A stretch of DNA of 32,000 nucleotides, taken from contig NZ_CP042911.1 in the NCBI RefSeq assembly GCF_008065095.1, forward strand, positions 7,980,001-8,012,000, given 5' to 3'. The stretch's first letter is position 1, and every line of letters starts with the position of its first letter. Both the position numbers and the translations under genes were made by a program. The stretch is from Gemmata obscuriglobus. GTDB taxonomy: Bacteria > Planctomycetota > Planctomycetia > Gemmatales > Gemmataceae. The notes under the pieces were generated by a model. That model saw only the letters and a list, made by a program, of their open reading frames with translations. It made no database searches and was not told the DNA's origin. Below are positions 20,674 to 28,412 of this stretch, one piece after another.

Positions 20674-23253
20674 ATGAATAAGAACGAGTTTGCCACCGCC
20701 TTTGCGACGCTCGCGGGCACTCCCGGCCCTTTTCCTTGGCAGTGGGAGTTGTATAAGCGGTTCGTCGCTGGTGACATCCCGGCGTCGTGTAACCTGCCAA
20801 CCGGTTTGGGCAAAACATCGGTCATCCACGTCTGGCTGCTCGCTCTGTCTGTGAACAACAAGCTCCCGCGGCGGTTGGTGTACGTTGTGAACCGGCGCAC
20901 CGTGGTGGATCAGACGACAAATGAAGTGGAGAATCTCCGAGAGCGCTTGCCGGATGTCCCGGAGGTCGAAGCCGCGCTTTGGGCGTTGTGTTCGACACGC
21001 CCAGAGAAGCCTGACCCGAAGAAGGACCGGCCGCTCGCGATCAGCACACTACGCGGCCAATTCGCGGACAACCGCGAGTGGAGCGCCGACCCGTCGCGCC
21101 CGGCGGTGATCTGCGGCACCGTAGACATGATCGGCTCGCGGCTGCTGTTCAGCGGGTACGGATGCGGGTTCAAGACGCGCCCCTTGCACGCCGGGTTCTT
21201 GGGCCAGGACGCGCTCATCGTCCACGACGAAGCGCACCTGGAACCGGCGTTTCAGGAGTTGCTCGTAGAGATCGAAAAGGAACAGCAGCGGTGCAAGGAC
21301 TTCCGGCCGCTTCGGGTGGTGGAACTGACCGCGACCTCGCGGGCCGATGGCCCGCCGCCGTTCACCCTCTCCGACGAGGATTACAAGGACGAAACCGTTC
21401 AACGACGCGTCGGCGCGAAGAAGGCGCTTCACCTCCAGCCGAACAAGGACGAGAAGAAACTCGCGGACGAGATTGCGGACCTTGCGCTGAAGCACAAAGA
21501 ATCCGGCAGTGCGATTCTGGTTTTCGTCCGCAAAGTTGATGACGTTGATAAAGTCACGAAGAAGCTCCCGAAAGGTTTGTTCGAGCAACTGACCGGAACC
21601 CTTCGCGGGTTGGAACGCGACGACCTCGTGAAGAAGCCGATTTTCCAGCGGTTCTTACCGCCCTCGAACCGCAACACGACCGCCGCACCGCAACCGGGCA
21701 CGGTGTACCTCGTCTGCACGAGCGCGGGCGAGGTGGGGGTGAACATTTCGGCGGATCACCTCGTCTGCGACCTCTCGACGTTCGAGAGCATGGCCCAGCG
21801 GTTCGGCCGCGTGAACCGCTTCGGGGAACGTACCGACACCGAGATTCACGTCGTTCACCCAAGAGAAGCGGACTTCGATGGCGAGAATACGATCGACGTG
21901 CGGCGGATGCGGACTCTCACTTTGCTTCTGCAACTTAACGGCCAAGGCAGTCCGGCCGCACTCGGGATGCTCGACCCGAAGGCGCGCCAGGAGGCGTTCG
22001 CGCCGACACCGACCATCCTCCCCGTGTCCGACATTCTGTTCGATGCGTGGGCGCTCACAACCATCCGCGCCAAGTTGCCCGGGCGCCCGCCGGTCGAACC
22101 GTATTTGCACGGATTGGCAGAATGGCAACCGCCGGAAGCGCACGTCGCGTGGCGCGAGGAAGTGGGCTGCATTACGGGCGCCCTGCTGACGCAGTATCCG
22201 CCCCAAGACCTGCTCGAAGATTATCCGCTGAAGCCGCACGAACTGCTTCGCGACAACTCGGGCCGCGTGTTCGATCGGCTGAAGAAGTTGAAGGCCGATG
22301 CAGGAACTCCTGTATGGGTCGTGGACGATGACGATTCCGTCCGCGTCACCACGCTCGGCGAGTTGATCGACGCGGGTAAAGAGGCCATCGAGCGCCGAAC
22401 CGTTCTCCTCCCGCCCGGAGCCGGTGGGCTTGCGAACGGAATGTTGGACGCGACATCGACCTCCGCAGATGACGTGGCCGACCGATGGTTCGCGGACGAA
22501 TTGCGGACACGGCACCGCCGCATTCGCGTCTGGGACGATGACACCGTGCCCAGCGGAATGCGACGAATTCGCAAGGCGATCGACATCAAGCCCGATGCGG
22601 AAGAGGCAGAGGAAGAAGAAACCGGCACGCGCTTCTGGTACTGGTTCGAGCTATCATCCGGCGGCGACGGGGACGGTTCCAAGAACACGACGGGAGCCGT
22701 ACTGTGGCAGGTTCACACCGACGATGTGGTGAAAAACACGGCGGCGATCGTCGAGAAGCTTGGCCTGGGAGACTTGGTCAAGGCTTTCGAGATCGCGGCG
22801 AAGTGTCACGACCTCGGCAAGAGGCGCAAGGTGTTTCAGACCGTTCTTGGTAACCGGGCCTATCCAGCGGTCACGCTGGCAAAATCGGGTCAAAAGGGCG
22901 GGCGGATCGCGGAGACATACCGGCACGAGTTCGGCTCGCTCATCGACACCGCGAATCCGGATCTAGCCCCAGGTTTCGCGGGCCTCTCAGAAGACCTGAA
23001 AGCGTTTGTGCTGCACGTCATCGCGACGCACCACGGGCGCGGTCGCCCGCATTTCCCAGAACCCGAAGCGTTCGACCCCGAGCGCCCGGACGCCGACGCC
23101 AAGACGGTTGCCCGCGAGGTGCCGCGTCGGTTCGCGCAATTGCAGCGCAAGTACGGGCGGTGGGGGCTGGCGTACCTGGAGTCGCTGTTGCGCGCCGCGG
23201 ACTACGCCGCAAGTGCCAAGCCGTCGGCGTTCGTGACGGAGGGCGTGAAATGA
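20674..23253 (+). CDS. cas3: Cas3 helicase with C-terminal HD nuclease domain (type I-G/I-U architecture)
   Basis: 859 aa with GAGGAG 8 nt before the ATG. Helicase motifs: LPTGLGKTS (I), VHDEAHL (II), CTSAGEVGVNI (V), QRFGRVNR (VI). The HD domain is at the C-terminus (KCHDLGKRR, YRHEFGS, IATHHGRGRPHF, LLRAADYAAS). Confidence 0.92.
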   Translation: MNKNEFATAFATLAGTPGPFPWQWELYKRFVAGDIPASCNLPTGLGKTSVIHVWLLALSVNNKLPRRLVYVVNRRTVVDQTTNEVENLRERLPDVPEVEAALWALCSTRPEKPDPKKDRPLAISTLRGQFADNREWSADPSRPAVICGTVDMIGSRLLFSGYGCGFKTRPLHAGFLGQDALIVHDEAHLEPAFQELLVEIEKEQQRCKDFRPLRVVELTATSRADGPPPFTLSDEDYKDETVQRRVGAKKALHLQPNKDEKKLADEIADLALKHKESGSAILVFVRKVDDVDKVTKKLPKGLFEQLTGTLRGLERDDLVKKPIFQRFLPPSNRNTTAAPQPGTVYLVCTSAGEVGVNISADHLVCDLSTFESMAQRFGRVNRFGERTDTEIHVVHPREADFDGENTIDVRRMRTLTLLLQLNGQGSPAALGMLDPKARQEAFAPTPTILPVSDILFDAWALTTIRAKLPGRPPVEPYLHGLAEWQPPEAHVAWREEVGCITGALLTQYPPQDLLEDYPLKPHELLRDNSGRVFDRLKKLKADAGTPVWVVDDDDSVRVTTLGELIDAGKEAIERRTVLLPPGAGGLANGMLDATSTSADDVADRWFADELRTRHRRIRVWDDDTVPSGMRRIRKAIDIKPDAEEAEEEETGTRFWYWFELSSGGDGDGSKNTTGAVLWQVHTDDVVKNTAAIVEKLGLGDLVKAFEIAAKCHDLGKRRKVFQTVLGNRAYPAVTLAKSGQKGGRIAETYRHEFGSLIDTANPDLAPGFAGLSEDLKAFVLHVIATHHGRGRPHFPEPEAFDPERPDADAKTVAREVPRRFAQLQRKYGRWGLAYLESLLRAADYAASAKPSAFVTEGVK

Positions 23254-24089
23254 GTTTCAGCGTAGCTGTGGACCCGACTAATCCGGGCCAGTTCTTTGCG
23301 TGCTGCGGGTTGCTGGAGTTGGCTGACCGTCTCTGGCCCGGCGCGGAAGGTTGGTTCGAGGACGGAACGTTTCATGTGTCGACGGGTGATATCGCAACGT
23401 TAATTGACCAGCTTGTCTGCCTGCGATTCGTTAGTTCGCTCGGCGACGACGGATTGAAGCGGCTTGGCAGCCTACTGAGTGCCGACAAATCGACACTAAC
23501 GGAACTGGACAAGCAAGATAAAGAGCGATTGCGAAAGGCTTGGCAAGTTGAGCGAGTTCAAATCCCCGCTCCGTTCGATTTCTGGTTGGATTGGTGGTGG
23601 AATGATAAATCTGGCGTGACGCTGCTCAAGACTTGGGCGGCGAAACAATTCGTTCTGTCGATGGCTAACCCGATGCTGTCCGCTCTTAAGAGCCTGACCT
23701 GGGACAGCAGCAGCAGGGAAAACTGTTTGCAGCGGACAGCGAAATTGTCAGGGTTGCCCTTTTATTTTGATGCAGCAAACAACACTCAAAATACGCCGCG
23801 CGACAATGGTTTTGCTCCGGGGGCTGTAAAGTCAGCTCCCAACGATAGACCGCTGCTTGAACTGCTCGCGTTTGTCGGGTTGCAGCGGTTTCGTCCACAT
23901 CGACCCGATAAAGCTGAGCGAATTCTGTACGCAACTTGGTCCATTCCCCTTCCGCCTTCTGTCGCTTCGGTAGCAGCAGCGGGGATGTTGAACGTGACAG
24001 GTAGTCGAGCCTTTGAATTCCGCATGCTTTACCGGACTGAGTATATGAAAGCGTTTCTTCCTGCCCAAGCCGTGCGAGGTGTCAAATGA
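23250..24089 (+). CDS. Short Cas8u/Csb3-like protein (paralogue A; putative large-subunit-type component)
   Basis: 279 aa. ATG 23250 overlaps the cas3 stop (ATGA) and its own stop overlaps the csb1 ATG (ATGA). The N-terminus MSFSVAVDPTNPGQFFACCGLLELADRLWPGAEGWF resembles the N-terminal motif I associate with the Csb3/Csx17 (Cas8u) families. Its position between cas3 and cas7 is the usual large-subunit slot. Visibly lower G+C than the flanks. Confidence 0.6.
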   Translation: MSFSVAVDPTNPGQFFACCGLLELADRLWPGAEGWFEDGTFHVSTGDIATLIDQLVCLRFVSSLGDDGLKRLGSLLSADKSTLTELDKQDKERLRKAWQVERVQIPAPFDFWLDWWWNDKSGVTLLKTWAAKQFVLSMANPMLSALKSLTWDSSSRENCLQRTAKLSGLPFYFDAANNTQNTPRDNGFAPGAVKSAPNDRPLLELLAFVGLQRFRPHRPDKAERILYATWSIPLPPSVASVAAAGMLNVTGSRAFEFRMLYRTEYMKAFLPAQAVRGVK

Positions 24090-27832: not shown

Positions 27833-27889
27833 CCGCCTGCAAACGTGTATGGAACCGGCAACATTCGGTCGGTGATGCACCGCACTGGG

Positions 27890-28412
27890 GCCGATCACGT
27901 GCTCCGCGCCCTCTTCGCCCCGTGGGACTACCGCGACTCGCTGAACAACCAGTCGCTGCACTGGGAACCGAGCGAGGACCGCCGCCACGCGTACCAGCGG
28001 CTGGTGCCGACCAACTCGTGGACCCACGGTGGTTTCCACGGGCGGCGTCGTAACGGCCACGCGTACCAGCGGCTGGTGCCGACCAACTCGCGGAGCCGAG
28101 AAACCGGCGGCATGCTCGGGGCGAACCGGCTGGCGCTAGAGGCGTGGCCGTTGTTCCCGTCGTTCCCGGACGGGGACCGCGTGCGCACCCCGCGGGTTCC
28201 GGGGCAACCGCGCGGCGAGTACGTTCTGGCTGTGGCCGCTGTGGGATTCGTGCTTGACAGCCGACGGGGCGGCCTCAATGCTGTCCCTGCGGGGCCTCCA
28301 GACCGAATCCTGGGAGGCCGATCTGCTCCGCGGGTTCAGGGTCACTTCGGTGTTCCGGACCTCGCGCATTCTGGTCGGCAAGACGCCGAACCTGCCCGGC
28401 CTGACCGGGTGA
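27890..28412 (+). pseudogene. Degraded partial third copy (C) of the Cas8u-like gene: C-terminal part only, 72-nt insertion, frameshift
   Basis: [36 protein letters not shown]...[27 protein letters not shown] aligns with HLTKALFAYWTYDDPLEGLSLRWDPRDDLRYATRF...SVLGANRLAFEALPLFPCFARGSRLVT of paralogue B. After ~28187-28192 the homology continues in another frame ([33 protein letters not shown]...[26 protein letters not shown], stop 28410-28412). Compare B: TGFLVLDRRPFFTWPIWEPAWGLSSVRSVLGAL...IGVTVCYQCEKVSNSDYSNFTPSRAL*. Confidence 0.7.
27984..28090 (+). repeat. 35-nt perfect direct repeat, 72 nt apart, inside the degraded copy
   Basis: gccacgcgtaccagcggctggtgccgaccaactcg occurs at 27984-28018 and again at 28056-28090 (both encode [11 protein letters not shown]). 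Only the second occurrence is followed by sequence that aligns with paralogue B. Confidence 0.9.

Follow-up and report, generated by a model that had tools for sequence, protein, structure and literature searches.

A type I-G CRISPR-Cas locus of Gemmata obscuriglobus, probably rebuilt by cassette replacement, carries a Cas8g2 gene and the 3' remnants of two Cas3-extension genes

Genes of the locus

The subject of this analysis is a type I-G locus of CRISPR repeats and cas genes in a 32,000-nt stretch of Gemmata obscuriglobus DNA (contig NZ_CP042911.1, positions 7,980,001 to 8,012,000; hereafter the window), and in particular three pieces of it that we call A, B and C. Read along the forward strand, the locus consists of a cas4/cas1g fusion, cas2, cas3g, A, csb1, csb2, B, C, a leader and the repeat array (Table 1). 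The products of cas4/1, cas2, cas3g, A, csb1 and csb2 all passed the NCBIfam equivalog models for type I-G, and A, B and C were without a match in Pfam; A is 100% identical to GobsT_67630 and B to GobsT_67660. The three pieces lie where an earlier reading of the letters alone (the original prediction) had placed them, but they do not form the "one Cas8u/Csb3-like family" that it saw in them: A belongs to TIGR04106, B and C belong to NF049934 ("type I-G CRISPR-associated protein, Cas3-extension family", here EXT), and the two models were mutually exclusive on A versus B and C at E ≤ 0.01. The overall reading that we favour, as likely yet with considerable room for doubt, is that a type I-G locus was rebuilt here by cassette replacement, with A as the working large subunit, C as a dead piece and B probably still serving as an accessory or alternative large subunit.

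By family, A is an ordinary type I-G large subunit, Cas8g2/Csb3. Its open reading frame (ORF) of 279 aa begins with an ATG that overlaps the stop codon of cas3 (ATGA) and at its other end overlaps the start of csb1, and the product matches TIGR04106 over model positions 1-282 of 282 with 405 bits against a cut-off of 125. The same placement between cas3g and csb1 is found in 80 metagenome loci, as far as their contigs reach. The AlphaFold2 (AF2) model of A, with a predicted local distance difference test score (pLDDT) of 82 and a predicted template modelling score (pTM) of 0.82, gave 8b2x as its top PDB match in Foldseek (E 1.1e-3, probability 0.97, template modelling (TM) score 0.34) and 7tr6_C as a further match (E 0.06). 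In Bifidobacterium animalis, a protein named Csb3 by its authors co-purifies with Csb1, Csb2 and CRISPR RNA (crRNA) (bioRxiv 2022.08.19.504415), and A would serve as the large subunit alongside the present Cas3 and Csb1/Csb2/crRNA backbone.

Origin of B

Its sequence marks B as the 3' part of a gene in which cas3 and EXT were once fused. B covers positions 1-298 of the 299 in NF049934 with 227 bits against a cut-off of 65, and TIGR04106 gave no match on B at E ≤ 0.01; our own Cas8g2 profile scored at most 11 bits on EXT proteins. The frame of B is open from 26492, and from its annotated GTG start it encodes 359 aa. In frame with B lie the last 36 codons of a cas3 gene, and nothing more of that gene: csb2 stands directly before them, and the canonical csb1-csb2-cas3-EXT context is absent. 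This relic shares 53% identity with the C-terminus of the Cas3 of the same locus (E 1e-7). With the Cas3-EXT fusion of L004, a locus of the EXT type, its identity is about 90%, at a proportion of nonsynonymous differences (pN) of 0.10; about 26 extra N-terminal residues of the stand-alone B ORF derive from Cas3.

The AF2 model of B (pLDDT 85, pTM 0.88) also had 8b2x as its top Foldseek match (E 2.4e-5, probability 1.00, TM-score 0.55), followed by 8ip0_J and 7tr6_C at E 0.02-0.03. We take the chain of 8b2x to be Cas8g, from its length of 649 aa and the effector paper, 7tr6_C (a type I-A Cascade chain) to be Cas8a and 8ip0_J (a type I-B Cascade chain) to be Cas8b, which would make Cas8 chains of all the top matches. 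The B model, which spans 301 aa and combines helices with about 12 strands, is of mixed alpha/beta type and shows no small helical bundle, and the Cas11-like role once suggested for one of the copies finds no counterpart in it.

A mosaic locus with a junction shared by a second lineage

Compared gene by gene, the locus is a mosaic. Identities to L004 are 80% for Cas4/1, 87% for Cas2 and 68% for the cas3 relic together with EXT, the last in one high-scoring segment pair, versus 28% for Cas3, 29% for Csb1 and 25% for Csb2. With L084, a locus of the Cas8g2 type, the window shares 57% identity in Cas3, 64% in Cas8g2, 74% in Csb1 and 47% in Csb2; no spanning alignment was reported between the window and L084 for Cas4/1, Cas2 or the relic with EXT, nor between the window and L004 for Cas8g2. 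The change from one history to the other falls within a few bases: homology of csb2 ends at its TAG stop codon (26710-26712), and homology to the 3' end of the L004 cas3 (..WNAELPERFWRVVRK..) starts at about 26720, some 10 bp later.

The same chimeric order is found in a metagenome contig, L108, whose proteins are 85% (Cas4/1), 91% (Cas2), 68% (Cas3), 58% (Csb1) and 65% (Csb2) identical to those of the window. Its junction is the same, with the csb2 stop followed by ..EWAAELPER; about 215 codons of B are deleted after the junction there, and the remainder has at least two frameshifts. Since the junction is common to both, the swap would predate the split of Gemmata and L108, between which the synonymous divergence (dS) is 0.72 for cas4/1, 0.61 for cas2 and 0.9-1.0 for cas3 and csb2 (0.6-0.97 overall). 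As to direction and mechanism, we infer that the ancestor was L004-like, in the order cas4/1 - cas2 - csb1 - csb2 - cas3 fused to EXT - leader - array, and that a Geobacter-type cas3-cas8g2-csb1-csb2 cassette replaced csb1, csb2 and about 96% of cas3, that is, all but its last ~36 codons. The EXT domain would thereby have been orphaned as a separate ORF, B, 10 bp downstream of the stop codon of the new csb2.

Table 1. Features of the type I-G locus, in window coordinates
Feature	Position	Strand	Assignment and relationships
cas4/cas1g fusion	18662-20377	+	resident adaptation module; NF049935, 671 bits; 80% identical to L004, 85% to L108
cas2	20377-20661	+	resident adaptation module; 87% identical to L004, 91% to L108
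cas3g	20674-23253	+	putative incoming cassette; TIGR02621, 643 bits; 50-57% identical to L084/L085, 28% to L004
A, cas8g2/csb3	23250-24089	+	large subunit of the putative incoming cassette; TIGR04106, 405 bits
csb1/cas7g	24086-25213	+	putative incoming cassette; TIGR02570, 221 bits; 74% identical to L084, 29% to L004
csb2 (cas5-cas6 fusion)	25213-26712	+	putative incoming cassette; TIGR02165, 302 bits; 47-50% identical to L084/L085, 25% to L004
Right-hand breakpoint of the proposed cassette replacement	26713-26722		between the end of csb2 homology and the homology to the L004 cas3 3' end
Relic, last ~36 codons of the replaced cas3g	26723-26830	+	in frame with B; TIGR02621 positions 819-854 of 854
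B (GobsT_67660), intact ORF	26753-27832	+	NF049934 domain at 26927-27826; 227 bits
C, pseudogene	27890-28412	+	from an older NF049934 copy, C-terminal half only; one frameshift, near 28188
Leader region	28413-28655	+	promoter-like site at 28614-28641
CRISPR array	28656-32000	+	36-nt repeat GTTCTCCGCGGCTCATAGCCGCGGCCGAATTGAAGC, at least 46 repeats, continuing past the window end

The cas8g2 gene has a history of its own within this arrangement. Between Gemmata and L108 (23377-24015 versus 10128-10787 of L108), Cas8g2 is 43% identical and a DNA match is undetectable over most of the gene, and the products of the genes around it are 68% (Cas3), 58% (Csb1) and 65% (Csb2) identical; Cas8g2 and Csb1 of Gemmata are nearer to L084 than to L108. 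From these identities, cas8g2 itself appears to have been exchanged within the incoming cassette, and turnover of the large subunit seems to outpace that of the other effector components.

In the flank the G+C content is about 0.68-0.72, and across cas3-csb1 it drops to 0.58-0.63, which is consistent with a foreign origin of the cassette. The CRISPR repeat has CCGCGGCTCATAGCCGCGG here where L004 (array 11443-12298) has CCACGGCTCAACGCCGTGG, the only differences being paired substitutions that keep the stem, and the 3' handle ATTGAAGC is identical in the two. Because the repeats are near-identical and Csb2, which contains the Cas6 domain, is only 25% identical, the incoming Csb2 would have to process a repeat inherited from the old system. 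In the leader, a sigma-70-like site (TTGCGA-16-TATAAT; matching in 10 of 12 positions, with 0.1 such sites expected in shuffled sequence) lies 15 nt before the first repeat and is a candidate leader promoter; no terminator-like site was seen between csb2 and the array. On the upstream side, the CRISPR-Cas locus is adjoined by an ORF at 16966-18114 that we take to be citrate-synthase-like, as read from its translation rather than with a profile library.

A dead third piece

C was described in the original prediction as a partial third copy of the subunit. The homology proposed between B and C is borne out (BLASTP 45% identity over 96 aa, E 2e-22, both matching NF049934), but C is, judged from its lesions and its similarities, a pseudogene, and one that comes from another EXT lineage than B. 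Similarity begins at its first listed base, a single frameshift interrupts it and the stop codon is at 28410-28412; the 53 bits that it reaches on NF049934 are under the cut-off, and it corresponds to positions 149-300 of our own 307-position family profile. C shares 42% identity with B, compared with 59-71% with the Cas3-EXT fusions of another clade (71% with the protein P0026). A shorter orthologous relic of C immediately follows the EXT stop in L004; at the DNA level the two are about 75-80% identical, and their frameshifts lie at different places. L108 too has a C-like relic, with lesions that differ from those in the window. Given these orthologous relics, C would already have been a stub in the common ancestor; probably it was left by an earlier replacement of the same kind, in which the 3' half of an older EXT gene would have stayed behind by the leader.

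Two other origins of C were considered and rejected. A recent tandem duplication of B is ruled out by the 42-45% identity to B versus 59-71% to the other clade and by the orthologous relics in L004 and L108, and an assembly or frameshift artefact is ruled out by these same relics, whose lesions differ between lineages. C also contains a 42-nt direct repeat (27984-28025 and 28056-28097; 95% identical) that inserts 24 codons. Its start-to-start spacing of 72 nt equals the period of the adjacent CRISPR array, its sequence is unrelated to the CRISPR repeat, and it is probably a coincidental in-frame duplication; Tandem Repeats Finder missed it, and a direct-repeat search detected it.

EXT-type and Cas8g2-type loci elsewhere

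Species-representative genomes were scanned with the EXT profile, which gave 383 pattern-matched stretches, 318 of them loci that encode the family. The best 80 of these 318 were annotated together with three loci fetched earlier, and once two contigs with HD-EXT remnants had been set aside, 79 other loci were available for comparison. Wherever the flank is present, these have the order csb1-csb2-cas3g-EXT, usually followed by cas4/1. About 70 loci have EXT as an ORF of its own, and in the Gemmatales clade nearest to B it is fused to Cas3; in L004, for instance, the fusion is 1274 aa long, with Cas3g at residues 1-941 and NF049934 at 974-1271 (assigned with NCBIfam, which confirmed L021 as well). 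None of the 79 has Cas8g2 within 10 kb. In 53 EXT loci no conserved gene was found upstream of csb1 (the largest ORF cluster there had members in 9 of the 53), and L003 and L021 contain nothing else that is Cas8-like. With no other conserved candidate, EXT would be the only large-subunit candidate of this type I-G variant. In L003, EXT and cas4/cas1 are separated by a toxin-antitoxin-like trio made up of two genes for nucleotidyltransferases and one HEPN gene (11099-12612).

The Cas8g2-type set consists of 80 metagenome loci together with L084 and L085, found with the Cas8g2 profile or protein, and its order is cas3-cas8g2-csb1-csb2. The two orders are circular permutations of each other, and in both of them the Cas8-like domain follows the 3' end of cas3. 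Among these 82 other Cas8g2 loci only L108 has NF049934 sequence, which is degraded there; at least 1.5 kb after csb2 is in view in 25 of all 84 Cas8g2 loci scanned. The joint presence of A and B, which had been called unusual from the window alone, is thus unusual by both counts.

Among the products annotated as Cas3 there are HD-EXT proteins of about 570 aa. Their candidacy as a separate stand-alone family was rejected, as they come from truncated cas3-EXT genes wherever their context is visible. The 5'-truncated cas3-EXT genes concerned lie at 10001-11713 in L001, 85-3254 in L087 and 2800-11500 in L086; one is found by a 37-repeat orphan array without csb1 or csb2 (L001, array 14273 to about 17000), one directly behind an insertion sequence (IS) gene (DDE_Tnp_1) and one amid fragmented cas1, csb1, csb2 and cas3. 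The 3' ends of Cas3-EXT genes seem to outlast the decay of their loci repeatedly.

Selective constraint and possible function of B

A 5'-truncated piece of a fusion gene that still carries 36 codons of cas3, in an arrangement known from one species and from L108, where B is deleted and frameshifted, invites the explanation that B is a non-functional relic like C, passively transcribed behind csb2 and intact by recency or chance. Its cognate backbone genes are gone, and truncated HD-EXT remnants by arrays or IS elements in L001, L086 and L087 offer parallels. We regard this main rival as possible, though on the unlikely side. The junction shared with L108 would make B at least as old as that split, and in a neutral simulation of substitutions on the 359-codon ORF, indels ignored, the frame stayed free of stops in 4.5% of runs at 0.1 substitutions per site, in 0.3% at 0.2 and in 0 of 4000 at 0.3, which is about half the dS between Gemmata and L108. 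Nor did we find an acceleration relative to L004: with L005 as the outgroup, unique amino-acid changes numbered 29 in Gemmata and 28 in L004, with similar results for the other two outgroups, and B differs from L004 by a pN of 0.22 against a proportion of synonymous differences (pS) of 0.72. In a three-taxon comparison over 148 shared B codons, the nonsynonymous branch length (dN) was 0.14 for Gemmata, well under the neutral expectation, and 0.19 for L108. The family alignment of 37 sequences, B among them, has 23 invariant columns, and B retains all of these. Taken together, these figures indicate purifying selection on B during most of the period after the swap; the copy in L108, too, seems to have been held under constraint for some time until it broke.

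Several points weigh against our reading of B and of the swap. The dS values are near saturation and the L108 fragment of B is 59% identical to Gemmata at the amino-acid level, no closer than L004 at 63%, so that the time since the swap, and hence the strength of the argument from ORF survival, is uncertain. B is broken in L108, which means that its loss is possible, and since B co-evolved with a Csb1 and Csb2 that are only 25-29% identical to the present pair, it may not bind this backbone. The GTG start of B comes from annotation only. EXT-type and Cas8g2-type loci are, moreover, highly mosaic, as the 43% identity of Cas8g2 between Gemmata and L108 versus 58-68% for its neighbours illustrates, and B might conceivably have been re-acquired later by recombination. 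With all this taken into account, we lean towards B being still made and acting as an accessory or alternative large subunit.

How such a protein might act is suggested by the characterised type I-G effector, in which Cas3 joins the backbone only with Cas8g present (Shangguan et al. 2022, PMC9638904). By analogy, EXT would be an adaptor resembling the N-terminal domain of Cas8g that links Cas3 to the backbone and that in one branch of type I-G is tethered to Cas3. In Gemmata the tether would have been cut, giving a stand-alone EXT like that of the ~70 other loci. A bolder version, which we put forward as speculative and rather doubtful, is that the orphaned B is a second large subunit on the backbone of Cas8g2, and that NF049934 is the missing large subunit of a type I-G branch in which Cas8 is fused to Cas3.

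Relationship of A and B

The sequence signal between A and B is weak. BLASTP aligned the N-terminal motif only (32% identity over 73 aa, E 6e-5 as a single comparison). When alignments of 32 Cas8g2 and 37 EXT sequences were compared as profiles, local hhalign gave P 0.008 over 148 columns, and a low-stringency run gave a colinear alignment of 249 columns at P 0.02 that recovered every block noted by eye in the original prediction, including a C-terminal FR..R(T/I)...K.F..PA motif; global hhalign returned a 5-column alignment only. HMMER scores across the two families were about +1 bit versus -2.3 bits for shuffled or reversed controls, a shift of about 3 bits with no significant match, and PDB sequence searches with the A and B profiles, and with Csb1 itself, gave nothing useful. 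With so weak a signal, the case for homology of A and B is a structural and positional one.

The AF2 models of A and B both start with an N-terminal helix; next come a hairpin, a group of three helices, a pair of strands and one long helix, and after the FDxxxN / WDPxDD loop both have a helix at 201-213, a strand, a helix and a terminal sheet. The top PDB match 8b2x and the further match 7tr6_C are common to both, and each gene stands directly after a cas3 3' end. Judged from these models, a distant homology of A and B, with a fold like that of the N-terminal domain of Cas8g, is very probable. Of the homology that had been claimed, kinship by fold and position is upheld, and membership in one family is not. 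The comparison of predicted structures likewise agrees in the order of elements and in the top match, with TM-scores to 8b2x that are modest; a further reservation is that Cas8g in 8b2x is itself an AF2-derived model docked into a map of about 8 Å (PMC9638904).

Were A and B unrelated, the N-terminal motif and the similar length would reflect convergence or chance, and EXT would be an accessory domain of Cas3 without relation to Cas8. An hhalign probability of just 2-5%, the failure of global hhalign, HMMER cross-searches without a significant match and the fact that NCBIfam does not name EXT a Cas8 all allow for this, but it would leave as coincidence four blocks that are colinear over the full length, an identical order of secondary structure in independent models that lead to the same PDB chains, and the same place in the operon, and it would leave the EXT-type loci without any large-subunit candidate. 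We therefore consider it improbable. That A, B and C arose by duplication in this operon, with the work split between a Cas8-like subunit that reads the protospacer adjacent motif (PAM) or recruits Cas3 and a Cas11-like or accessory one, is very improbable indeed: A and B do share a fold, flank csb1-csb2 and are both intact, but the closest relatives of all three lie elsewhere (A 64% to L084, B 68% to L004, C 71% to P0026), similarity is barely detectable between A and B and 42-45% between B and C, and the proposed paralogues include one that carries a cas3 fragment and is no helical Cas11-like bundle and one that is frameshifted.

Discussion

Much of what lies at this locus is already known in kind, as all gene families are in NCBIfam and modular exchange in CRISPR-Cas systems is an established principle. 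The type I-G system of Geobacter sulfurreducens (formerly I-U; cas3g - cas8g2 (GSU0052/Csb3) - csb1 - csb2, with cas4/cas1 and cas2) has the same families, with the four interference genes in the same order; in Gemmata the adaptation module lies upstream, and B and C are extra between csb2 and the array, an addition found in no other Cas8g2 locus examined except L108. Relative to EXT-type I-G systems (csb1-csb2-cas3g-EXT, fused or adjacent), B is 68% identical to the EXT of L004 and still follows a cas3 segment, but the body of that cas3 and the cognate csb1 and csb2 have been lost, a foreign csb2 stands before B, and Cas8g2 is present.

A characterised large subunit of type I-G is Cas8g1 (Csx17) of Thioalkalivibrio sulfidiphilus, whose mixed alpha/beta N-terminal domain contacts Cas7.1 and Cas7.2 (8b2x; PMC9638904). 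Cas8g1 is about 650 aa long with a C-terminal Cas11-like helical domain that A (279 aa) and B (a domain of ~300 aa) do not have, and its sequence identity to A and B is 12-16%. Binding of the backbone, reading of the PAM and recruitment of Cas3 by A and B would follow by analogy with these relatives, the experiments having been made on Csb3 of B. animalis and Cas8g1 of T. sulfidiphilus.

Adaptation and effector modules shuffle in CRISPR-Cas evolution, a theme of the classification work of Makarova and Koonin. The Gemmata locus is alike in that its adaptation module and array are of another history than its interference genes, and differs from the general picture in that the breakpoints can still be placed with a precision of a few bases and that two 3' stubs, left one after the other, are still present. 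In the searchable literature we did not find a description of NF049934 as Cas8-like, of tethering between Cas3 and a Cas8-type protein, or of a locus with two nested stubs and a dated shared breakpoint.

The locus is thus a clean example of the exchange of an interference module in which the array and the adaptation genes stayed put, and the sister contig L108 gives a rough relative date for the cassette replacement. Should B prove inert, the locus would amount to a neat but unsurprising instance of modular evolution in CRISPR systems. For the family, the implications reach further, as NF049934 has no stated role in NCBIfam and here appears, from its predicted model, to have a fold like that of the Cas8g N-terminal domain and to be the sole large-subunit candidate in a widespread variant. 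The fold and context of EXT suggest a Cas8 tethered to Cas3, which fits Cas3 being an integral, Cas8g-dependent subunit of type I-G and would offer a testable minimal system. For Gemmata, the undecayed stub B makes it conceivable that one backbone is served by two alternative large subunits; if B is a second large subunit, one array would feed two surveillance complexes, which might differ, for example, in PAM range or in resistance to anti-CRISPR proteins.

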